Positions 2,710-15,525 of a DNA stretch of 24,000 bases are shown here, in pieces; position 1 is the stretch's first letter; each line of letters begins with the position of its first letter. A program made the position numbers and the translations under genes. The DNA is from Methanomassiliicoccales archaeon (GTDB lineage: Archaea; Thermoplasmatota; Thermoplasmata; SG8-5). The DNA lies in assembly GCA_030636255.1 (NCBI GenBank), contig DAOVXH010000004.1, forward strand, positions 1 to 24,000, in the 5' to 3' direction. The notes beneath the pieces are model-generated. The model was not told the DNA's origin, made no database searches, and saw only the letters and a program-made list of their open reading frames with translations.

Positions 2710-3144
2710 TCAACCAATATTTTTTCTAAATAGGCTCACAAATGCCATCTGGGGAATGTTTTTCTTTTCTTCCTCGGAAAGACATGTGATTTCTGTTTCA
2801 TCGATACTTAATCTTAATACTATCTGGCGAAGTGCCTCCATGAGAACTGTTATGTTAATATCCCTGGGACATCTCTCAGCGCAAATAAAGCAAGTGGAGC
2901 AAAGCCATATCGTCTTTGAATTCAATACCTCTTTCTTATCAAGGATAATATGCCGTATAACCTCGTCCGGCGTTAGGTCCATCTCCTCTACAAAAGGGCA
3001 GCCTGAAGCACATGTGCCGCATTGATAGCATCCAAAAACATTCTCGTCACAAAGTTCAAGAACCTCATCAACCAGCTTACCTGCCAGTTTAATTTCCTTT
3101 GATGTTTCAGGATGTTCACAATCATTCTCAGACTCTGTTGACAT
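2710..3144 (-). CDS. HdrC-like 2x[4Fe-4S] ferredoxin-domain protein
   Basis: Motifs CYQCGTCASGCP and CSTCFICAERCP. ATG 3144 (MSTESEND...) is preceded by a G7 run on the coding strand. The track start at 3165 is TTG. Confidence 0.7.
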   Translation of the reverse strand: MSTESENDCEHPETSKEIKLAGKLVDEVLELCDENVFGCYQCGTCASGCPFVEEMDLTPDEVIRHIILDKKEVLNSKTIWLCSTCFICAERCPRDINITVLMEALRQIVLRLSIDETEITCLSEEEKKNIPQMAFVSLFRKNIG

Positions 3145-3326
3145 TATACCCCCCCATAAAAACAAAAAGTTTTATGAGCGCTATGAATCATGGGAATAAT
3201 AATAAGATATATAAATGTTAAGTCAATTAATTTTATAAGCCCGTATATTCAAAGAATAATTATGTGAATAAAATCAAAAATAAAAAATATGTAAAAATCC
3301 TAATAATCAAGTATAAATTCGTAATA

Positions 3327-4430
3327 ATGGTAACTATTTCTGACGAAAAGTTCTTATCTATCCGATATATGCACCTCAACATGGTATCGAATATTTCGAA
3401 AAACGAGGGGCTAGTTCTCTGGGGGCTCACTGTTTACCCCGAACTTACTGATATAGAGATTTCCAAGAAACTGGACATGCCACATTCCACTTTCAGCACA
3501 ATAAGAAAAAGACTTCAGAAGAATGAGTATTACACCACTGTAAAGGTTCCAATGGTGCAGAATCTGGGTGCAGAGATGCTGGCGGTTCTTTATACATTTT
3601 TTAACCCGGCAATATCAGTGCAGCAACGGGCAACCATCACAACCAAGACAATTGAAATTTTTGAAGAAATATTCTATTCTGTAGGTGAGACACATAAGGG
3701 ATTTTCTGTATCATTTTCCGGCAATTATACTGCAATTGGCCAGATTACCGAAAGAAGAATAGAAACATTCGCCAAAGAAGGCCTTCTGGACATCCAGCAG
3801 CCCAAGGAAGTTATCTTTCCGTTCAAGATTAGCAAGATTCCATTGTTTTTTGATTTTGACGCACTTATCGCTGATGCCTTTGATATTGATCTAGAAGTTG
3901 AGGGAAAAAGAGGGATTGACCCCTCGGTGCACAATGTTGAACTCTCCAAAACCGAAAAGATTATACTACTGGCCATGGTTGAAAATCCAGATGCCACCGA
4001 CCTTATGCTTTCAGATATTGTTGATATGTCCAGGCATACAGTTTCCAAGGTAAAGCACAAACTGGAGGAAGCAGGTCTCATAACAAAGAAACGAATTCCA
4101 AATCTGGAAAAATTAGGATTCAAGATTATGACTTTCAATCATATAAATTTTAATCCACGCAAACCACTAGATAATGAACTTCTGGAATCCAATGTCCTGA
4201 ACAATCCATCCAGCATATTCCTGGCTGCCCGGAGCTTTGAATGTGTTCTCCTGTCAGTGTACAAGGACTACGAGGCATACCGGGAGGACCACGGAATGAG
4301 ATTGCAGCACCTGAAAGAAAATAATTATCTGGCTGACATGCCTGCTACTGGAAAATACATGATACCCAGTATGGTCATTATGAAGGATATGAATTTTGGG
4401 CCTATTTTGAAGAAGACGCTGATGTTGTAA
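3327..4430 (+). CDS. Putative transcriptional regulator with two tandem winged-helix modules (internal duplication)
   Basis: Track ORF 3264..4430 (GTG start). Module 1 is EGLVLWGLTVYPELTDIEISKKLDMPHSTFSTIRKRLQKNEYYTTVKVPMVQNLGAEMLAVLYTFFNP. Module 2 is EKIILLAMVENPDATDLMLSDIVDMSRHTVSKVKHKLEEAGLITKKRIPNLEKLGFKIMTFNHINFNP. The two are clearly parallel. The start is uncertain: GTG 3264, ATG 3327, ATG 3369 or ATG 3381. Confidence 0.5.
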   Translation: MVTISDEKFLSIRYMHLNMVSNISKNEGLVLWGLTVYPELTDIEISKKLDMPHSTFSTIRKRLQKNEYYTTVKVPMVQNLGAEMLAVLYTFFNPAISVQQRATITTKTIEIFEEIFYSVGETHKGFSVSFSGNYTAIGQITERRIETFAKEGLLDIQQPKEVIFPFKISKIPLFFDFDALIADAFDIDLEVEGKRGIDPSVHNVELSKTEKIILLAMVENPDATDLMLSDIVDMSRHTVSKVKHKLEEAGLITKKRIPNLEKLGFKIMTFNHINFNPRKPLDNELLESNVLNNPSSIFLAARSFECVLLSVYKDYEAYREDHGMRLQHLKENNYLADMPATGKYMIPSMVIMKDMNFGPILKKTLML

Positions 4431-6137: not shown

Positions 6138-7712
6138 ATGCACTGGGTTGACGTTTACGCAGAAAAGCTCTTAGAGCAAGGTAAGTCACATATTATTGAG
6201 AGTGGAACCTCTATTTCCGGACAGCCGCATCTTGGCAGCGCCGAGGACATAATAATCTGTGATGGAATTCTGAAGGCCATAATCGAGAAGGGCGGCCAGG
6301 CAAAAGCAATCTGGGCCATGGATGACATGGACGGCCTTAGAAAAATACCAGCTCAACTTCCAAAGGAATTTGACAAATATCTTGGACAGCCAGCTTATGT
6401 TTTACCATGTCCGGACGGATGCTGCGGTTCTTTCAGAGAGCATTTTACAAGACCATTCCTTGAAAGCCTGGAAAGAATAGATGTCAAGCCAGAGCCAATA
6501 TCTGTGGCGCAGATGTACCAGGACGGAAAGTATGATGAAGTTGTCACAATCGCACTGACCAGGGCCCAGGAAATTAAAGACATCATGAAAGAGGTTTCAG
6601 GTAGCGAACGAGATGATGACTGGCTGCCGTTCTTTCCCATATGTGAGAACTGCGGAAAAATACTCAGTACAAAGGCCTATGAGTTTGACGGCAAGATGAT
6701 AAAATACACTTGCAAGGGCGGCATTGCCGGTAAAAATTTGATTCCTGGCTGCGGTCATGAGGGAGAGGCAGGCATTCGACAGGGCAAGCTTCCATGGCGT
6801 GTGGAATGGGCAGCAAGATGGAGTCATTTGGGGGTAACCTGCGAGCCAATGGGCAAAGATTTAATGGCTGCCGGAGGGACCTATGAAACAGGAAAGGCCA
6901 TTTGTGAGAAGATATTTGACAGTCCAGCGCCGATGCCAGTACCCTATGAGTGGATAGTCATAGGCGGCGGAAAAAGACTTGGAAAATCTGCTGGCACAAT
7001 TCTAACAATTGGCGAGATGATTGACATTATCACTCCAGAAATCGCCAGATACTTCTTTTTCAGAACCAACCCTGCCAGCCACAAGGAGATTGACTTCGAG
7101 CTGGCAATTCCCAAGCTTGCCGAAGAGTATGAGATTGCCGAGAAAATTTACTTTGATATTGATACTGGATTACCGGAAAAAGAGCTTGACGAAATGAAAA
7201 GAAAATACGAAGTAGCTCAGTTCCAAGGAATACCTGAAAACTTCAGCCAGGTATCTTACTCGCATTTAATTTCAACAGTTCAGACAGCCCAGGATTGGGA
7301 CCATATCTTGAAGAAACTGGCCAGAACTGATGATTTAAGCCAGATGACACCGGAGCATGAGCGTCGCCTGAAAGAAAAAGTTCAGGCTGTAAGAACCTGG
7401 CTTGACACCCACGCACCAGAAAACATGATTTTCCAGCTCCAGATGGAGCACCCGAATGTGGAAATTACCCCGGAGCAAAAAGAAGTACTGGCCACACTTT
7501 TATCCAAGATGGGAAGCATAGAGTGGACTGCGGAAAATGTCCACAGCAGCATTTATGATACTTCCGTGGAATCAGAAATAAAGGCTGGCCAGATGTTCAA
7601 ATTAATTTACCAAATATTCCTGGCCCGAAGCAAGGGCCCCAGACTGGGACATTTACTGGCATCGTTGGAAAAGGATTTTGTGCTTGAAAGAATAAAGTAT
7701 TTTTCGGCTTAG
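6138..7712 (+). CDS. lysK: Lysyl-tRNA synthetase, class I (archaeal type)
   Basis: MHWVDVYAEKL...SGTSISGQPHLGSAED carries the HIGH-like element. Also present: GKLPWRVEWAARW, EPMGKDL and a KMSKS-like GKRLGKSAG. It is collinear with the methanogen LysK sequence as I recall it. The start is 9 nt after the gfcR stop, preceded by GAGGAAA. Confidence 0.9.
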   Translation: MHWVDVYAEKLLEQGKSHIIESGTSISGQPHLGSAEDIIICDGILKAIIEKGGQAKAIWAMDDMDGLRKIPAQLPKEFDKYLGQPAYVLPCPDGCCGSFREHFTRPFLESLERIDVKPEPISVAQMYQDGKYDEVVTIALTRAQEIKDIMKEVSGSERDDDWLPFFPICENCGKILSTKAYEFDGKMIKYTCKGGIAGKNLIPGCGHEGEAGIRQGKLPWRVEWAARWSHLGVTCEPMGKDLMAAGGTYETGKAICEKIFDSPAPMPVPYEWIVIGGGKRLGKSAGTILTIGEMIDIITPEIARYFFFRTNPASHKEIDFELAIPKLAEEYEIAEKIYFDIDTGLPEKELDEMKRKYEVAQFQGIPENFSQVSYSHLISTVQTAQDWDHILKKLARTDDLSQMTPEHERRLKEKVQAVRTWLDTHAPENMIFQLQMEHPNVEITPEQKEVLATLLSKMGSIEWTAENVHSSIYDTSVESEIKAGQMFKLIYQIFLARSKGPRLGHLLASLEKDFVLERIKYFSA

Positions 7713-7813: not shown

Positions 7814-7856
7814 TGGCCCCAAGTCTATTCGGCCATTCGTGAACTCATAACCTCAT

Positions 7857-7928
7857 AGCCTTGTGGTGTAGCGGCTATCATGGGAGACTCTGGATCTCTC
7901 GACTCCAGTTCAAATCTGGGCAAGGCTA
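7857..7928 (+). tRNA. tRNA-Gln (anticodon CUG)
   Basis: Manual cloverleaf. Acceptor AGCCUUG pairs perfectly with CAAGGCU. Anticodon stem is GGAGA/UCUCU and the loop is CU-CUG-GA. The variable region is 4 nt. T-stem is UCCAG/CUGGG with loop UUCAAAU. Discriminator is A and no CCA is encoded. A1:U72 plus A73 is the archaeal tRNA-Gln pattern. Confidence 0.9.
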
Positions 7929-7948
7929 TTTAATTATTTTATTATCTG

Positions 7949-7976
7949 AGCCTTGCCCAGATTTAAGAGGAATCGC
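7949..7976 (-). repeat. Inverted partial copy of the tRNA-Gln 3' end (T-arm 3' half plus acceptor strand)
   Basis: 7949..7964 (AGCCTTGCCCAGATTT) is the exact reverse complement of tRNA positions 7912..7927 (AAATCTGGGCAAGGCT). Weaker similarity continues for about 11 nt: cgaTTCCtcTT versus cgaCTCCagTTc. The two arms are separated by a 21-nt AT-rich spacer. Confidence 0.8.
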
Positions 7977-8038
7977 TTGCGAGACGAATAATCAAGAGAA
8001 ATCCTTATAACATAATCCCCTATGCCAGAACTGATAAC

Positions 8039-9703
8039 ATGGAGCAGCCAAAAGACTTCATCAGGGACATTGTGGCCGAAGACAATAAAACCGGCAAGTT
8101 CAAAGGTAGAGTGCATACCAGATTTCCTCCAGAGCCTAATGGATATCTCCATATTGGGCATGCCAAGGCTTTCATGCTGAGCTATGGTGTTGCCAAAGAG
8201 AATAACGGAAAATTCAATCTTAGATTCGACGATACCAATCCAGTCAAGGAAGAAACCGAATACGTGGACGGAATAATCGCCGATGTCAAGTGGATGGGAG
8301 CGGACTTTGAGGACCGTTTGCTGTTTGCTTCTGACTATTTTGGACAGTTATATGATTATGCCGAGGATTTGATAAAAAAAGGCAGGGCATATATTGATGA
8401 CCAGACACCCGAGGAAATGAAATTAAATCGGGGCGACTTCGAGAAGCCAGGCAAAGATAGTTCATTTCGAAACAGGTCAGTTGAGCAAAACCTTGGTTTA
8501 TTCCGACGCATGAAGGCCGGAGAATTCGCAGACGGTGTAAGGGTGCTTCGAGCCAAGATTGACATGACACATCCCAATATGAACATGCGTGACCCTGTAA
8601 TATACAGAATTCTCCATGCCAGTCATCACAATACCGGGGATGAATGGTGCATTTATCCAATGTATGATTGGGCACATGGGCTTGAGGATTCAATTGAGGG
8701 CATAACCCACTCACTTTGCGATGTTTCATTTGAGAATCATCGACCGCTTTATGACTGGTTTCTGGATCAGCTGGGGGTCTATCATCCGCAGCAGATTGAG
8801 TTCGCCAGACTCAATATGACCTACACTATCATGAGCAAGCGCAAGCTGCTGGTTCTGGTGGAAAATGGTCATGTAAAGGGCTGGGACGACCCCAGGCTGC
8901 CAACACTTCTGGGACTGCGAAGGCGCGGTTATACTCCACATTCAATTCAGGACTTCCTGAACAGGGTAGGCGTGGCCAAGAAGGAAAATTGGATAGCCAT
9001 CGAGCTTTTAGAGCACTGCATCAGGGAGCATCTGAACAAGATTGCTCCGAGATATATGGGTGTTCTTGACCCTCTGAAGATTGTAATTACCAATTTGCCA
9101 GATGGCCATGAGGAGTTCATGGAGGCCATTAACAATCCAGAGGATGAGAGTGCCGGCACCAGGCAGATTCCTTTCTCCAAGGAGATTTACATTGAAAGAG
9201 CAGATTTCATGGAAGAGCCAGTGAAGAAATTTTTCAGGCTTGCTCCAGGCAGGGAAGTACGGCTTCGATATGCCTATTTCATGACATGCAATGATATTGT
9301 GAAAGATGACGCTGGCAATATTATCGAGCTGCATTGCACAGTGGACCCGGAGACAAAGGGCGGCAATGCCCCTGACGGCCGAAGGGTAAAGGCCACAATG
9401 CACTGGGTCAGCGCAAAACATGCCATTGATGCCGAAGTTCGATTATACGATAAATTATTCACTGTGGAAAACCCACTGGCAGAAGATGGGGTCTTTGAGA
9501 GCTATGTTAACAAGGACTCACTGGAAATCCGGACGAACTGCAAGATTGAACCGGCTGTGAAAGAACTTGGTATTGAAGATAAAATTCAGTTTGAGAGGAC
9601 TGGATATTTCTGTGTTGACAAGGACACTACGCCTGAGAAGATGGTTTTTAATCGGACTACTGGGTTGAGGGATACCTGGGCAAAAGTGAAAAACCAAAAT
9701 TGA
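8039..9703 (+). CDS. glnS: Glutaminyl-tRNA synthetase (bacterial-type GlnRS)
   Basis: [20 protein letters not shown] holds the HIGH motif. Also present: [45 protein letters not shown] (KMSKS), [20 protein letters not shown] and the C-terminal [14 protein letters not shown]. It is collinear with E. coli GlnRS as I recall it over the whole length, including the GlnRS-specific C-terminal anticodon-binding domain. Confidence 0.92.
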
Positions 9704-9951
9704 TTTTCAGTCCAACATAATATTTCTCAAAAAATCTAGCTAGTGTATTGATAATGATTGTTGAACGCAAAGCGTTCGACCACGACATGGCATCAAATAT
9801 ATACAAAATTTAATGTCGTACTGCTCACAATAATCTACTGGCAATGGTTGGATGCGAGGACAAAATATAAACAGATAGAGTATCCGACATGATTGAGCAA
9901 TTTCTCAACAATCGCAATCAAAAATTCCGCAATCGCATGGCATTTAGCAGC

Positions 9952-9999
9952 GGATTGCGGAGAGATACCTGGGCGAAGGTTCAGAAACAGCAAAAGTAA
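9952..9999 (+). pseudogene. Relic of a second glnS 3' end (last ~15 codons plus stop)
   Basis: gga ttg cgg aga gat acc tgg gcg aag gtt cag aaa cag caa aag taa encodes GLRRDTWAKVQKQQK*. The intact gene ends [13 protein letters not shown] (9661..9703). Differences in the conserved block are mostly synonymous third positions. Weaker similarity (F.NR) lies just upstream, inside a 36-codon ORF at 9889..9999. Confidence 0.55.
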
Positions 10000-10032
10000 T
10001 ATATCATTATCTTCATGTAATCAATTGTGTGG

Positions 10033-13000
10033 ATGAAGAGAAATTATGTAGCCTGGATATGTGCGTTTTTGATGCTCAGCAGCGTGTTTGTTGGATTGCA
10101 AGTAAATGAAAATGCTGAAGCCAGGATAGCTGAGGGAGATGGAGTATTGTATACACCTCATGCGCCAATTAGAATAGATTCGGATGCGGATTTTCCTGGG
10201 ATTGCGTCTGGAGGTGACGGAAGTGCTGGTTCTCCCTGGATAATAGAAAATCATGAGATAAATGGCACGGGTCATGGATATTGCATTTACATTGGGAATA
10301 CTACTGAGCATTTCATTGTGAGAAATAGTTTTGTACACAATGCAGATGGATTACTAAGTTGGCCGTATTATACAGATTCAGGATTGACATTATATAATGT
10401 TCAAAATGGAGTAGTCTCAAACAACACCGCAGCTTCAAACCTTCGTCAAGGATTTTTGCTCCACACCTCCTCCAATAACACTATTGTTGACAACAATGTA
10501 TCTTCATTAAATTTGGATGGTATTTTACTCTACTCCTCCTCAAAAAACACCATTAGAAATAATACTGCAACTTTTAACAATGACTTTGGAATTTGCCTTA
10601 GCCTCTCCAACAATAATACAATATCAAGCAATAATGTGTCATTCAACAATAACAATGGCATGTACATAGTCTCTTCCACAAACAACACATTTTCAGGTAA
10701 TTATGTTGCATCGAACAATGACAATGGTATGCACCTAATTTCTTCGAGTAATAATTCTCTTGCTAATAATTCTATTATGAACAATGATGATTATGGAATC
10801 TTAATTGAGACCTCAATCAATAACACTCTAACTCATAATACCATGTACATGAATCTTTTGAGGTGCTTAACCCTCCGGTTTTCAAATAGCAACTATATAA
10901 CGAATAATAATTTATTTTCAAACAACGGTTGTTCTATTATGCTTGATTCGTCTTATAATAATTCAATTTATCATAATAACATAATCAATAGTGCTTTCGC
11001 CTTTGATAACACAGGATTTAACTCCTGGGACAATGGCTATCCGGACGGCGGCAATTACTGGAGTACATTCAACACCAGCCTTTATGTTGGAAACGAGAGC
11101 TTCTTCGCCTCTGGCGGCGAGGAGGGTTTCTATCTGGATCAAAACGAGAACACACCAGGATTCCAGGGTATCCAGACATTACATGAGATCAGATATGTTT
11201 GGGACAATGACTGGTCCTTTGTCTATGTATTGGTCGAGGGTGTAGATTTTGATATAAATATTACCACTGGCTGGGTTCAGGTTTACTGGGGAGGATTTGT
11301 TCTAGGCGATCAGCTCTATAGTGAATACACTTGTCTTGTAAACCCACCAGACCTATTCTGGGGACCAAATCAAGATATTCCTGACTCTGACTTTATTTAT
11401 GATATGCCATACCCAATTTTGGGAGGAACCAATGAGGATTCATATCCACTTGCTTACCCAATCATCAACGGAAGGTTCCAGCGTGGCCCAATAAGGATAG
11501 ATTCCAATGCTGATTTTGACCAAGCTCACGGTGTAATCAATTGGGATTCTGGAGATGGAAGTATTGACAATCCCTGGATAATCGAGAAATGGGATATTAA
11601 TGGAACTGGCCATGAATTTTGTATTTATGTTGGGAATACTACGGACTATTTTGAGGTGAGGGGCAATAGTTTTCACAATGCAAGTGGATTCGGGGTCATA
11701 ATACGCAATTGCTATTATGGAATAATTCTTGACAATGAAATAATTTACAATAATAACAATGGAATTTACTTACCGCTTTCATTTTATATCACAATTCAAA
11801 ATTGTAAGATATTATACAATAGCAATTCAGGCATTTATTTGAATGAGGCTTCTCGTCTAATCACAATTGAAAATAACACTATAAGTTACAATGCTGGCAA
11901 TGGTATTGAAACTTTTTATTCCTGGGGCAATAAAATATATAACAATGTGATAAGTAATAATGACGGTTCAGGTATCGGAACTTTTGCAGGTAGTAAAAAT
12001 ATAATAAAACAAAACACTATCTCAAATAATCAATATGCTATCGCACTCTTACTTTTTGATGGCAATGGAAGTATAATCAAACAAAACACTATCTCAAATA
12101 ATCAATATGGAATTTATACGGTCTTTTCTTCAAGTAATATTAGTTATTATCATAATAATTTCATTAACAACACCATCCAAGCATATGACGATGGCACCAA
12201 CAATACCTGGGACAATGGCTACCCAGATGGAGGGAACTATTGGTCTGACTATTCCGGTGTTGATTTGAATAGTACACCCTCCCAGGATATACCACCACCA
12301 GACGGAATCGGAGACACACCATATACAGACATTGACGGAGTGGCTGGAACCATAGACAATTATCCATTGATGGAGCCCTGGATGCCGCCCCCTATACTCA
12401 CCTATGACATAGACCTCACAACAGGCTGGAACCTAATCTCCCTGCCCCTTGCCCAGTCTGATGAAGATATTTATTCTGTATTATCCAGTATTGACGGTGA
12501 CTGGGACAGAATTAAGCTCTATGATTCACAGAGTGTGAATCACTGGTTATCGAGTTCCATATACAGTCCAGACCTGAGTGAAATTGACCAGTTGAACCAC
12601 ACAGTAGGCATCTGGATACACATGGTGAATGCAACAACTCTCACTGTGGAAGGAATAGAACCAGTGTTCACAAATATAACATTATATGCTGGTTGGAATC
12701 TGGTAGGCTATCCATCATTGTTTCCTGAAACTGTGGCAAATGCCCTCTGGGGAACTGGAGCAGACCGGGTGGAGGTATGCGACCTTGAAGAACCAGGCTT
12801 GATAAAAGAGGTGGGGCCAACTTATATCATGCAGCCAGGAGAAGGGTACTGGGTTCATGTTCCGGCTGATACTGTCTGGACAACTGAAAAGACTGTAGGA
12901 AATCCTCAAATTGTTGTACGAGGGGACAACCCTGACACTGGCGGTTATGAATACATTAGATTTAACAACACAGAACCAGTAAATGGTGATACAATTTCAA

Positions 13001-14442
13001 TAACAGCTACAATCCAGAATCTTGGTGGAGGTTCTGCAGCGGTTGATGTGAAATATTATGATGGTGAGGAAATATCGAGCCAGCTCATTGGAACCGATTA
13101 CTTGTTATTACCTGCACAGGGTGAAATAGATGCTGTAATAAACTGGAAAGCAAGTCCTGGTGGAGCTCACTCAATTATTGTTACAGCAGAGGTAAATGCC
13201 ACATATGCACTTGTAAATGATATTTATGACCCGTATCTTCCTGACAATCGAAACAGCACAGCCATCTTGGTGATACCAAAAATATTACTGGTTGACGATG
13301 ACAACCACACAAATGACTATTCCCTAGACGACACAACCTCGTATATGAGAGACGCCTTGAGAAATGCAAATTTTGAATATGACTTTGTAATTGTTGGGCC
13401 TGGTGACGGACCTGGCTATGATTACGGTGATTATCCCCTTGAGGATTATGACATCGTTATATGGATGACTGGCCATACCGAGACAAACACCCTCACACGA
13501 CCACTGAACCCTGCAGAACCAATGGCCACCAGAACCGATGATGTCGCAAACCTTATGAGATTTCTTGATGGGGAGTCCACAGGAGGAAATGGCGGTAGTT
13601 TGTGGCTGATTAGTGAGGGATACTGGGACGATGCTATCGGAGACCCGGTACACGAACCATTCTTTATGAATTACTTGCACCTGAGCGATATTGCCACAAC
13701 ACCCATGCCATCCCTAAAGAACACACTCCCCACAGAACTCTGGGGCAGGGAGAATCATACAATTACCAATAACTATGCAGATAATCCAATAAACACCGAG
13801 ATTAAGGTTGCTGGAACCGATGCGGCCTGGTCATGGGCCTCCGGTGATTTTCCGGACACCAGTGCTATTGCTCTCAATAATAGCGATAATTCCCGGGTTT
13901 ATGGTGTGACCTATGATTCAGATGATTATCCAGCTGACCCAATAGCAGATTCAAGAATATTTGTCCAGACCTGGGATTTTTCAAGGATACAGGACACTGC
14001 AACGCAGGCACAGTACGCCTATAGAGCTTTATTTTGGCTTGGAAACTATTCTATGATGTTCGGAAGAGATGTTGCATTATCTCAGCAGACTATTGAGCCA
14101 ACCACTGTTACAATTAATGAAACAATAAACATAACTGCCATTGTTCGAAACAACGGGTTCAATGACTATAATTCTTCCCAAGGCGATAATCTGTGGTATC
14201 TTCTGAGGATTACAGATGAATATAACAATGATATTACCGTGCCACATCTAGAGCGGATAGATTATTTGGGAATTGGGTCTAACAATGAGTTTATTATTAA
14301 TCATCAATTTACTTTTCATGAGATTGGAAACTTCACTGTCTGGATAGAAGTGGACCCATACAATTACATTATTGAAACCAATGAACTCAACAACCAGGCA
14401 TCTGAATATTACAATACATTTGAAATTGAGGTTTTGCCCTAG
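10033..14442 (+). CDS. Large secreted surface protein: two right-handed beta-helix (PbH1/NosD-like) modules plus C-terminal CARDB-like domains; probable glycoprotein/adhesin
   Basis: Track ORF 10027..14442 (GTG). ATG 10033 gives MKRNYVAWICAFLMLSSVFVGLQVNENAEA, a signal-peptide-like N-terminus. Long runs of ~22-24-aa N/S/I-rich coils are present (NNT.., SNN.., G.Y/I). A duplicated head motif PIRIDS.ADF...PWIIE..(I)NGTGH.(Y/F)CIY(I/V)GNTT and tail motif WDNGYPDGGNYWS occur twice. Two CARDB-like segments carry ..I.A.(I/V).N.G.. strands. Several dozen N-x-S/T sequons are visible by eye. I found no C-terminal TM or PGF-type anchor. Confidence 0.7.
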   Translation: MKRNYVAWICAFLMLSSVFVGLQVNENAEARIAEGDGVLYTPHAPIRIDSDADFPGIASGGDGSAGSPWIIENHEINGTGHGYCIYIGNTTEHFIVRNSFVHNADGLLSWPYYTDSGLTLYNVQNGVVSNNTAASNLRQGFLLHTSSNNTIVDNNVSSLNLDGILLYSSSKNTIRNNTATFNNDFGICLSLSNNNTISSNNVSFNNNNGMYIVSSTNNTFSGNYVASNNDNGMHLISSSNNSLANNSIMNNDDYGILIETSINNTLTHNTMYMNLLRCLTLRFSNSNYITNNNLFSNNGCSIMLDSSYNNSIYHNNIINSAFAFDNTGFNSWDNGYPDGGNYWSTFNTSLYVGNESFFASGGEEGFYLDQNENTPGFQGIQTLHEIRYVWDNDWSFVYVLVEGVDFDINITTGWVQVYWGGFVLGDQLYSEYTCLVNPPDLFWGPNQDIPDSDFIYDMPYPILGGTNEDSYPLAYPIINGRFQRGPIRIDSNADFDQAHGVINWDSGDGSIDNPWIIEKWDINGTGHEFCIYVGNTTDYFEVRGNSFHNASGFGVIIRNCYYGIILDNEIIYNNNNGIYLPLSFYITIQNCKILYNSNSGIYLNEASRLITIENNTISYNAGNGIETFYSWGNKIYNNVISNNDGSGIGTFAGSKNIIKQNTISNNQYAIALLLFDGNGSIIKQNTISNNQYGIYTVFSSSNISYYHNNFINNTIQAYDDGTNNTWDNGYPDGGNYWSDYSGVDLNSTPSQDIPPPDGIGDTPYTDIDGVAGTIDNYPLMEPWMPPPILTYDIDLTTGWNLISLPLAQSDEDIYSVLSSIDGDWDRIKLYDSQSVNHWLSSSIYSPDLSEIDQLNHTVGIWIHMVNATTLTVEGIEPVFTNITLYAGWNLVGYPSLFPETVANALWGTGADRVEVCDLEEPGLIKEVGPTYIMQPGEGYWVHVPADTVWTTEKTVGNPQIVVRGDNPDTGGYEYIRFNNTEPVNGDTISITATIQNLGGGSAAVDVKYYDGEEISSQLIGTDYLLLPAQGEIDAVINWKASPGGAHSIIVTAEVNATYALVNDIYDPYLPDNRNSTAILVIPKILLVDDDNHTNDYSLDDTTSYMRDALRNANFEYDFVIVGPGDGPGYDYGDYPLEDYDIVIWMTGHTETNTLTRPLNPAEPMATRTDDVANLMRFLDGESTGGNGGSLWLISEGYWDDAIGDPVHEPFFMNYLHLSDIATTPMPSLKNTLPTELWGRENHTITNNYADNPINTEIKVAGTDAAWSWASGDFPDTSAIALNNSDNSRVYGVTYDSDDYPADPIADSRIFVQTWDFSRIQDTATQAQYAYRALFWLGNYSMMFGRDVALSQQTIEPTTVTINETINITAIVRNNGFNDYNSSQGDNLWYLLRITDEYNNDITVPHLERIDYLGIGSNNEFIINHQFTFHEIGNFTVWIEVDPYNYIIETNELNNQASEYYNTFEIEVLP
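12001..12109 (+). repeat. Near-identical 37-nt direct repeat, 72 nt apart (one beta-helix coil duplicated)
   Basis: ataataaaacaaaacactatctcaaataatcaatatg (12001..12037) versus ataatcaaacaaaacactatctcaaataatcaatatg (12073..12109) differ at 1 position. Both encode IIKQNTISNNQY. Confidence 0.85.
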
Positions 14443-14447
14443 GATAA

Positions 14448-15080
14448 TCAAAATAATTCAGCAAACTGCAGAATATTATTCAGCATCATCTGAACTCCAA
14501 TAGATGCTATCAGAATTCCCATGATTCTCATGGTTGCTGTTATGCCGAGATTACCCATCTTTTCATAGATATACTGGCTCTCCATGAGAAGAATATAGGT
14601 TATCAATATTGTTATTACCAGGCAGAAAACAATAAATCCCCATTCCAGGACGTTCACAGACTGGCCCATGTAGATCATCGCAGTAATCATTGCGCCAGGA
14701 CCGGCCATCATTGGTATTGCCAGTGGGACAACGCCTACCATGCCTTTCTCGATTGCCTCATCCTTTTCTTCCTGGGAACTTTTAAACTGAGGTATCTGGC
14801 CCATTAACATGTCCGAGCCAATTTTAATTAGAACAGCAGCACCAACGAACTTGAGTGCTAGAAATTCAACATTGAACGCATCAAATAGATACTTTCCGAA
14901 CAATGCAAATGGAATGAGAACTGACAGACTGACCTTCACAGCATTGAGAATTACTTTTTTCTGCTGCTCCCTGGTATATCCCTGTGTCAGCAAAATAAAA
15001 AACGGAACCTTGCTGATAGGATTGATGGTAATGAATATGGCCGCGAAGGCCGCTATCATCAGGGTTATGTTGAAGTCCAT
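14448..15080 (-). CDS. MarC-family (UPF0056) integral membrane protein
   Basis: About six hydrophobic segments. The N-terminal ...FITINPISKVPFFILLTQGYTREQQKKV... matches the MarC-family NPI..P.F..LT signature. Confidence 0.7.
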   Translation of the reverse strand: MDFNITLMIAAFAAIFITINPISKVPFFILLTQGYTREQQKKVILNAVKVSLSVLIPFALFGKYLFDAFNVEFLALKFVGAAVLIKIGSDMLMGQIPQFKSSQEEKDEAIEKGMVGVVPLAIPMMAGPGAMITAMIYMGQSVNVLEWGFIVFCLVITILITYILLMESQYIYEKMGNLGITATMRIMGILIASIGVQMMLNNILQFAELF

Positions 15081-15295
15081 GTTGCCCCAGATATAATTAT
15101 TCTATTTAAATATATCATTTGGAAAATATTAATGAGTGGTTTTTCGGGGTGACGGGGTGTGGATTGGCTAAGTTGGTGAGGTAATTATATCGGTGAAAAA
15201 ACTCAAATTATTTATTTAGTGAATACGCATTTTCACCGTCTTGGATGAATCATAGATTCATCCGATTTTAAAATTCACACAGTGAGTTTTAAAAA

Positions 15296-15417
15296 GTGGC
15301 TGACAGCGTTCTGCGGTTCCCGTGGACTCTCGTACCACAGTACCGCGCAGAACGCAGGTGGACTTTACTTCTGGGTTCGGAAAGAGACCAGGTGTGGCCC
15401 CACCGCTGTGACCGTCA
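15296..15417 (-). rRNA. 5S ribosomal RNA (stand-alone)
   Basis: The reverse complement reads GACGGUCACAGCGGUGGGGCCACACCUGGUCUCUUUCCGAACCCAGAAGUAAAGUCCACCUGCGUUCUGCGCGGUACUGUGGUACGAGAGUCCACGGGAACCGCAGAACGCUGUCAGCCAC. Conserved 5S blocks are CCACACC, CCGAACCC.GAAGU.AAG, GUACUG and GGGAAC. The 5' and 3' ends pair as helix I. A TTTATA box lies ~26 nt upstream and a T5 run follows immediately downstream. Ends are good to about 3 nt. Confidence 0.9.
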
Positions 15418-15525
15418 AACCAAACCATGGATAGCCATGCTGTATAAATAGTTTTCAGTTTAATCGACTCAATCACGATAGATTTATATCAACATCTACA
15501 ATACCAGGCCAAAAGGTGCAATATC

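Follow-up and report, generated by a model that had tools for sequence, protein, structure and literature searches.

Integrative elements can duplicate the 3' ends of genes, as do e14 and phage 21 at icd of Escherichia coli and the elements that target tRNA genes. After integration of the e14 and phage 21 type, the intact gene carries a replacement end and the original end lies beyond the insert; the two ends share a short identical core, and their other differences are mainly silent. In homology-facilitated illegitimate recombination, known from natural transformation of Acinetobacter and Streptococcus, one side is homologous, the other joint has 0 to 1 nt of microhomology, and gene stubs remain. 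REP/BIME sequences, MITEs, and PATEs are multicopy repeats of about 200 nt that have hairpins near both ends and often lie just past stop codons, and PATEs have no terminal inverted repeats. Intron or endonuclease homing with co-conversion proceeds from occupied to empty alleles by repair copying and takes donor flank along.

The locus that we analyzed shares features with these systems. In the window (the whole 24,000-nt stretch examined, which is part of contig C77 in a 1.7-Mb source genome that is 77% complete), an intact glnS is followed 260 nt downstream, on the same strand, by a relic of a glnS end that terminates in a stop codon. As with e14 and phage 21, the replacement end is on the intact gene, the original end is beyond the insert, and the short identical core is accompanied by mainly silent differences; unlike in those cases, the insert is 293 nt, no integrase was found in it or in this assembly, and the repeated sequence differs from locus to locus. 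As in homology-facilitated illegitimate recombination, one side is homologous, the other joint has little microhomology, and a gene stub remains, but here the joint recurs at one point, the foot of the hairpin that ends a repeat element. That element is multicopy, about 200 nt long, and often just past stop codons, like REP/BIME, MITEs, and PATEs, and shares with PATEs the absence of terminal inverted repeats. It differs from all three in its six helices, its compensatory changes, and its one-strand G-U pairs, and the duplications around it are 12 to 118 nt long, not 2 to 10 nt. The likeness to homing is that repair copying would carry the element, and donor flank with it, from occupied alleles into empty ones; the differences are that no nuclease was identified, that the element stands behind the gene, and that the target is duplicated, not split.

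The left part of the locus consists of a class I lysS (6138 to 7712), a tRNA-Gln (CUG) gene on the plus strand (7856 to 7929; found by ARAGORN and matching the Rfam tRNA model at 53 bits), and a perfect 16-nt inverted copy of the tRNA 3' end (7949 to 7964, plus strand), which forms a hairpin with 7912 to 7927. The intact glnS (8039 to 9703, plus strand) encodes a bacterial-type GlnRS of 554 aa with Pfam tRNA-synt_1c domains, and its working tail, the left copy (9668 to 9703, plus strand), aligns with 9961 to 9999. Downstream on the plus strand follow a linker of about 53 nt (9704 to 9756), one copy of a dispersed six-helix structured repeat element of about 204 nt (9757 to 9960), and the relic proper (9961 to 9999), 39 nt comprising the last 12 codons and stop of a glnS allele (RDTWAKVQKQQK, stop). 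The element closes with a terminal 3' hairpin at 9927 to 9960, plus strand (CCGCAATC ... GATTGCGG). A TATA-like box (TAATATAT; 9997 to 10004, plus strand) overlaps the relic stop codon and is the probable promoter of a surface-protein gene (10033 to 14442, plus strand; 1,470 residues with NosD/beta-helix repeats) that occupies a hypervariable slot. The gap from glnS to this gene is 329 nt. A MarC-family gene on the minus strand (14448 to 15080) forms the conserved right border of the slot.

An earlier note on this DNA took 9952 to 9999, which reads GLRRDTWAKVQKQQK followed by a stop, for a second, diverged glnS 3' end, the working gene ending at 9703. A repeat search paired 9667 to 9696 with 9960 to 9989 (77% over 30 nt), and local DNA alignment of the two tail units scored 32, compared with 15.7 ± 2.4 for shuffled sequences, which is 6.8 SD above; none of 2,000 shuffles reached 32. 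The 11-nt identical core GATACCTGGGC that the note described is present at both 9671 to 9681 and 9964 to 9974. We took 99 GlnRS from relatives and bacteria and searched their last 25 residues against all six frames of the whole 1.7-Mb genome; 9961 to 9996 was the best nonself match (29.3 bits; E, 9e-4), found by 86 queries. With the neighboring glnS tail as the only query, the genome-wide E was 0.3, which is not significant, so it is mainly location and relatives that identify the relic. A profile of 97 GlnRS C termini ranked it second in the six-frame genome, at 3.8 bits, a score too weak alone. The relic carries the conserved C-terminal motif LRDTWAK, a basic tail, and a stop, collinear with the orthologous gene end. 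In the RDTWAKV codons, the relic and the working tail differ at four sites, none of which changes a residue (P about 8e-4 for random sites), and the mismatches (G/A, A/G, A/G, and G/T) go in both directions. By these measures, the similarity is real and no chance resemblance.

The borders of the relic differ from those first proposed. The "GLR" codons GGA TTG CGG (9952 to 9960) are the 3' arm of the terminal hairpin of the element, so the extra "R" is no inserted codon; the claim of a second glnS end therefore stands for 9961 to 9999 and falls for "GLR". An "F.NR" match to glnS, reported upstream, lies inside the element, in the 5' arm region of the hairpin, and is homologous to other element copies instead. 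BLAST would extend the relic back to 9847 ("EDKI"), an extension that we rejected because that stretch, too, belongs to the element. As drawn from these alignments, the relic starts at 9961, exactly at the foot of the last hairpin. A 36-codon ORF (9889 to 9999, plus strand) has its first 24 codons within the element. In the relative L190, its ATG is CTG and 5 of about 15 common codons differ nonsynonymously (read directly), and stops interrupt the frame in the element copy on contig C1. Since neither start nor frame is conserved, the ORF is most likely an accidental frame in which element and relic are fused, and probably no gene.

Relatives identify the allele from which the relic came. A cluster of GlnRS about 92% identical to the window enzyme was found in a protein collection; JGI metagenome contigs and species genomes contained no relative above 70% identity. 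GlnRS P0126 and P0132 end in DTWAKVQKQQK, P0002 and P0129 end in VQKQQGK, and three GlnRS of the window's own species end in VKNQN. The QKQQ-type tail is also present in more distant archaeal and bacterial GlnRS, which makes it the older type and KNQN the derived one. Of its 39 nt, the relic has 37 (95%) in common with the working tails of glnS in L185 and L186, and both differences are silent. This agreement with the tails of enzymes about 92% identical bears out the earlier view that the synonymous pattern reflects a once-working, diverged allele. On this comparison, the relic is the displaced original last 12 codons of glnS, from such an allele, and no fresh copy of the neighboring tail. 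It is identical in three other assemblies of the same species, and no assembly of this species is missing the 293-nt block in front of it. The relic itself appears to be no gene; it may persist because it is young, because its last bases lie in the promoter of the surface-protein gene, or both.

We searched the genomes of the order with 9704 to 9960 as the query. The element at 9757 to 9960 had 7 matches in the window's genome (G000), 26 in G001, and 8 in G002, which puts its occurrence in this genus at 7 to 26 per genome, and there were weaker matches in the family. Copies measure about 200 to 230 nt; those in G000 are also on contigs C1, C15, C36, C101, C135, and C191, and further element loci are L201 to L212 and L235 to L238. 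They often lie a few nucleotides past a stop codon, in the same orientation as the gene upstream, and some are in tandem. Thirteen aligned copies share six helices with 39 pairs, 99.6% of the cells being paired, and 11 pairs show compensatory changes; none of 500 shuffles equaled this structure, and sliding the pairings by 1 to 3 columns lowered the paired fraction to 27 to 41%. A pattern search found the terminal hairpin CCGYAATC...GATTRYGG in 17 of 18 copies examined, with covarying C-G/T-A pairs. G-U pairs occur on this strand only, which points to an RNA or single-stranded form of the element. Rfam 15 gave no covariance-model match over 9757 to 9960 at an E of ≤1, the exact 26-nt element core had no match in viral contigs, and no conserved motif was seen to the left of the element or of the duplicated copies. 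The linker is shared by the window and L190 and absent from other element copies, whose flanks are unrelated to it. The element represents a previously undescribed structured repeat family of uncultured Thermoplasmatota, well supported by its covariation.

The two sides of the relic joint match different relatives. A single BLAST match aligns L190 positions 1041 to 2943 with window positions 8036 to 9934, taking in glnS, its tail (AAT TGA TTTTC), and most of the gap, so that the working tail and the DNA downstream of it are homologous to the L190 glnS end. In L190, the same block of tail, linker, and element follows glnS; it abuts MarC there, and the relic is absent. Window positions 9960 to 10326 match the glnS tail, promoter, and gene start of L185 and L186, and L188 also matches from 9960 on; the 5' region of the surface-protein gene is only 77 to 79% identical to any sampled relative. 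Between the body of glnS and the relic stands the 293-nt block (9668 to 9960), which consists of the replacement tail, the linker of about 53 nt, and the element of about 204 nt. The breakpoint that the earlier note put near 9950 can be placed at 9960|9961, where microhomology is 1 nt (read directly); each flank is homologous to a different parent, as in scars of homology-facilitated illegitimate recombination. The left half being L190-like and the right half L185-like, we regard the window, on balance, as a recombinant of an element-bearing (left) and an element-free (right) glnS allele, joined without homology at the foot of the element's last hairpin.

Such a recombinant could have arisen if the glnS tail of an element-free chromosome broke and an element-bearing allele served as the template for repair, with homology on the glnS side. 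DNA synthesis, or an incoming fragment, would have stopped at the terminal hairpin, and the copied end would then have been joined to the other broken end. The recombinant reading draws on the differences between left and right copies, which are all silent, as expected of two working alleles, and on the match of the relic to the relatives' working tail, the empty sites in L185 and L186, and the same geometry at other element copies. Against it we count the lack of any donor-tract step in glnS, the unresolved glnS tree, and the coding-like right copies at C1 (see below), as well as the roughly 12 of 18 element copies without duplication and the absence of any nuclease, transposase, or reverse transcriptase tied to the element. 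Sliding identity along glnS showed no switch near the 3' end and no step marking a donor tract; the tree, with support of 52 to 66%, made no foreign 3' part visible. GC3 of glnS (0.51) is like that of lysS (0.48) and MarC (0.49), and the codon comparison suggested earlier thus lends no support to a foreign glnS. A tandem duplication of tail plus promoter was rejected because the 56 nt after the glnS stop are unlike the DNA after the relic. An older glnS stub in the L190 spacer was also rejected, its similarity being nonsignificant and due to a hairpin arm. A weak 12-nt duplication of the MarC end in L190 (P about 0.02) also speaks against the recombinant model, which has no need of it.

In relatives, lysS is followed by tRNA-Gln with its inverted arm, then by three small genes and glnS, and beyond a variable gene come MarC and a methyltransferase gene. 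Between glnS and MarC, L185, L186, and L188 carry a different NosD-type gene, L187 carries an amidase/glycosyl hydrolase family 18 gene, L181 and L189 have a different surface gene, and the slot is empty in L190. The MarC protein of the window is 92% identical (aa) to that of L190, and the genes also match at the nucleotide level. In L185, L186, and L188, the glnS stop overlaps a conserved TAATATA box, and the ATG of the surface-protein gene lies 30 to 40 nt further on; L185 and L186 keep this order of stop codon, TATA box, spacer, and ATG, and L188 has it two times. Box, spacer, and signal-peptide start recur in the window immediately 3' of the relic. The earlier remark that the relic stop abuts a TATA-like box can accordingly be sharpened to an overlap, in an arrangement kept in those three relatives. 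In the synteny comparison, glnS stop, TATA box, and surface-protein gene in L185 and L186 represent the element-free state of the site.

In L188, its own glnS tail (RKKA, stop) is followed by a first promoter module, in which the signal-peptide ORF is truncated, and by a NosD gene of 699 residues. The module of glnS tail end, TATA box, and signal-peptide start occurs there twice, at 3751 to 3935 and 6175 to 6340, and the second promoter module is preceded by a glnS stub of about 25 nt (VQKQQK, stop, and TATA box) with no element nearby. This stub is a second, independent glnS relic, which makes the border between glnS and the surface slot a repeated site of illegitimate joints. Since the promoter overlaps the end of the essential glnS, no recombinant can retain the downstream promoter without the final glnS codons, which explains the repeated occurrence of glnS stubs at this place.

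Five of about 18 independent element loci are flanked by a direct duplication of neighboring DNA, and about 12 of the 18 copies have no flanking duplication. The right copy begins 0 to 5 nt past the 3' hairpin at the glnS, C1, C191/L211, L201/L238, and L202 loci; the left copy lies 11 to 60 nt before the conserved element core, and the flanking duplications range from 12 to about 118 nt. On C1 (about 2981 to 3330; L222/L227), the last 36 codons of an FAD-dependent oxidoreductase gene of the geranylgeranyl-reductase family stand on both sides of the element at 91% identity, and contig C166 of G001 (L228) has the same arrangement. The oxidoreductase site is empty in the close relatives L239 and L241 and in the family-level relatives G012 and G003. 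L242 shares its left junction with C1, but its right copy starts only 40 nt before the stop (versus 110 nt), and it holds a second, partial element (1.7 tandem elements).

The C1 locus has four copies in all, a left and a right one in each of G000 and G001, and they specify one and the same run of 35 residues. Their nucleotide differences, 10, 12, and 23 of 108 nt, bring no amino acid change (P < 2e-5 for random sites). Copies within a genome are 89 to 91% alike, versus 79 to 82% for orthologues, and the right copies of G000 and G001 have the same junction and differ at 23 of 108 nt. They are unlike a dead scar inherited from a common ancestor, which should have decayed. Their joints may be recent and recurrent, or the copies may be refreshed by element-free alleles, or they may still be used after element removal. 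At glnS, the silent differences are few, with 2 between the relic and L185 and 4 between the relic and the working tail. With the same left junction in L242 and C1 and different right ones, the left side looks inherited or copied and the right joint looks made anew. The pattern agrees with an occupied allele having been the source of repeated one-ended copying, with end joining at the hairpin as the second step; a transposase-type duplication fits poorly, given the varied lengths, the lack of terminal repeats and of a target motif, and a linker outside the element family.

The tRNA end of the locus was the other place where a breakpoint had been proposed, near 7949. In BLAST comparisons of relatives' loci with the window, tRNA-Gln with the inverted arm is kept at 91% in L186 and 98% in L189, which contradicts that proposal; the L187 match covers only 7959 to 7982 (100% over 24 nt), just past the inverted arm. 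The spacing from tRNA to glnS is about 60 nt in the window, about 180 nt in L189, and three genes in L186 and L187, and the point of presence or absence of these genes is at about 7983 to 7994. Given this conservation, the inverted arm, which lies outside the relic event, is a feature of the tRNA locus and no breakpoint of a glnS event. The tRNA-Gln 3' end pairs with its inverted copy in a hairpin (7912 to 7964) that is kept across the genus, so it is likely functional, in processing, in termination, or as an attachment site, and no scar.

Apart from the recombinant reading, the duplicated tail might have been made in place, linker and element having inserted into the glnS tail, flanked by a long target-site duplication of about 39 nt, and the left copy then having diverged under protein-level selection. 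Right copies that start 0 to 5 nt past the 3' hairpin at five or more loci, clean empty sites in relatives, and the greater likeness of C1 copies within a genome (89 to 91%) than of orthologues (79 to 82%) would all suit such an event. We nevertheless think it unlikely. Duplication lengths vary between 12 and about 118 nt, the core is separated from the left copy by 11 to 60 nt, and we know of no transposase with such variable duplications and offsets; the linker is outside the element family yet continuous with glnS in L190; and identity between the relic and the L185/L186 tail is 95%, whereas 4 of 7 third positions are changed in the working tail. Neutrality of the right copy also predicts nonsilent changes, of which there are none among the 10 and 12 differences at C1, and the same left but different right junctions of L242 and G000 point against it as well. 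The surface-protein gene could instead have been imported as a cassette into an L190-like genome, by homology in MarC and illegitimately on the left; the donor's glnS stub would have come along because the promoter overlaps it. This is suggested by the different slot gene in nearly every relative and none in L190, by the second stub of L188 before a second promoter module with no element nearby, and by the GC3 of the surface-protein gene, 0.38 compared with 0.44 to 0.51 in its neighbors. Such an import is improbable in our judgment, however, as the joint falls exactly at the element end, as it does at unrelated, cassette-free loci, and a 5' region 77 to 79% identical to any sampled relative allows no donor to be named.

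Continued use of the relic, either as the end of glnS once 9668 to 9960 has been excised from RNA or DNA, or through translation of the ORF at 9889 to 9999, would account for four C1 copies in two species that encode the same 35 residues despite 10 to 23 differences in 108 nt (P < 2e-5); loss of 9668 to 9960 would keep the reading frame, and the element ends in G. It is very improbable all the same, because the ORF start is unconserved and other copies interrupt its frame, inspection by eye showed no splice-type motif and Rfam gave no match, the working tail already has its own stop codon, and every assembly of this species carries the block. Still more remote is a replacement of glnS itself as a cassette, with the inverted tRNA fragment (7949) on one side and the relic (9950) on the other, which the earlier note had favored on the strength of relics on both sides. 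The left flank does vary, with three small genes present or absent, but their presence/absence point is at about 7983 to 7994, the tRNA hairpin is kept in relatives whatever comes next, in contradiction of a left bracket by locus BLAST, and glnS is as close to all relatives as its neighbors are. What was inserted is 293 nt, and the variable cassette is the downstream surface-protein gene. As for a chance likeness of a short lysine- and glutamine-rich ORF to a GlnRS tail, which the own-tail E of 0.3 and the 3.8-bit profile score might seem to allow, its probability is negligible: it is contradicted by the relic being the best match in the genome, adjoining glnS on the same strand with a stop codon, and the relic is collinear with the relatives' tail, promoter, and gene.

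Searches for enzymes that might move the element covered incomplete genomes. The PF00589 integrase profile had no match in G000 (77% complete), and 9704 to 9960 contains no integrase-type ORF. PF07282 (TnpB/Cas12f-type nuclease) was absent from the incomplete G000, G001, and G002, with 8 of 14 control genomes positive, and PF00078 (reverse transcriptase) had no match in the same three incomplete genomes. Y1 transposase genes are present in G001 and G002, and their loci (L213 to L216) have neither sequence nor hairpin pattern in common with the element.

Several known classes were considered and set aside on these and other grounds. Attachment-site duplication by a site-specific integrase does not suit flanking repeats that are locus specific (glnS tail, oxidoreductase tail, and promoter region), and no integrase was found in the insert or in the 77% complete G000. 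A MITE with target-site duplication would not have two different local hairpins as its ends, without a terminal inverted pair, nor a duplication that varies in length and is often absent. The element does have the hairpins near both ends and the lack of terminal repeats of PATEs, which derive from IS200/IS605, but it shares no ends with a Y1-bearing IS and has no conserved left target motif. The scaffold of a TnpB or IscB omega RNA was rejected for want of a TnpB-type nuclease in the incomplete G000 to G002, and target-primed reverse transcription was rejected for want of a reverse transcriptase in these genomes. A diversity-generating retroelement disagrees with mismatches that go beyond template adenines and in both directions, and no reverse transcriptase was found for it in these genomes either; by eye, nothing convincing beyond the terminal G spoke for such a retroelement, a bulge-helix-bulge intron, or a group I intron.

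Taken alone, the relic is an ordinary recombination scar. Its value lies in giving a date and a direction to a rearrangement that borders a hypervariable surface-protein slot, and in having brought to light a structured repeat family of uncultured Thermoplasmatota that had not been described. Several members of this family stand behind duplicated gene ends, and at one locus both copies evolve as if translated; to our knowledge, no class of prokaryotic mobile element or repair scar predicts such coding-like duplicate ends. We speculate that the element could be a mobile structured RNA or DNA element of Thermoplasmatota that passes from one related genome to another, copying itself into element-free alleles together with a "rescue" gene end diverged at silent sites, the displaced ends staying under coding constraint through regular removal of the element at the DNA or RNA level. 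We hold this to be decidedly unlikely. If it were true, such a mobile, removable element would be a natural counterpart of engineered "home-and-rescue" gene drives, and an element that is removed or homes would have a new way to sit harmlessly, as a selfish element, at essential genes.

Other observations concern the surroundings of the relic. Within glnS, 8291 to 8560 is a mosaic patch in which L181 and L189 are 82 to 90% identical to the window while L185, L187, L188, and L190 fall to 68 to 80%, a pattern that suggests that lineages recombined within the gene. The nearest contigs with a GlnRS gene belong to genomes labeled Thermoplasmatota or Thermoplasmata. The enzyme, 60 to 66% identical to those of Fermentibacteria, Planctomycetota, Chloroflexota, and others, is of the bacterial type and is present throughout this archaeal order, and tRNA-Gln genes often adjoin glnS, in either orientation. 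The three small genes between tRNA-Gln and glnS in most close relatives comprise two of 97 to 110 aa without a family and a third that carries a NikR C-terminal domain; neither the window nor L189 has them, and no orthologue was found in the incomplete source genome. On the right, the methyltransferase gene that L186, L187, and L190 have between MarC and an RDD-family gene is missing from window positions 15081 to 15525, and L190 positions 4261 to 4429 match window positions 15456 to 15288 at 90%, in inverted orientation.
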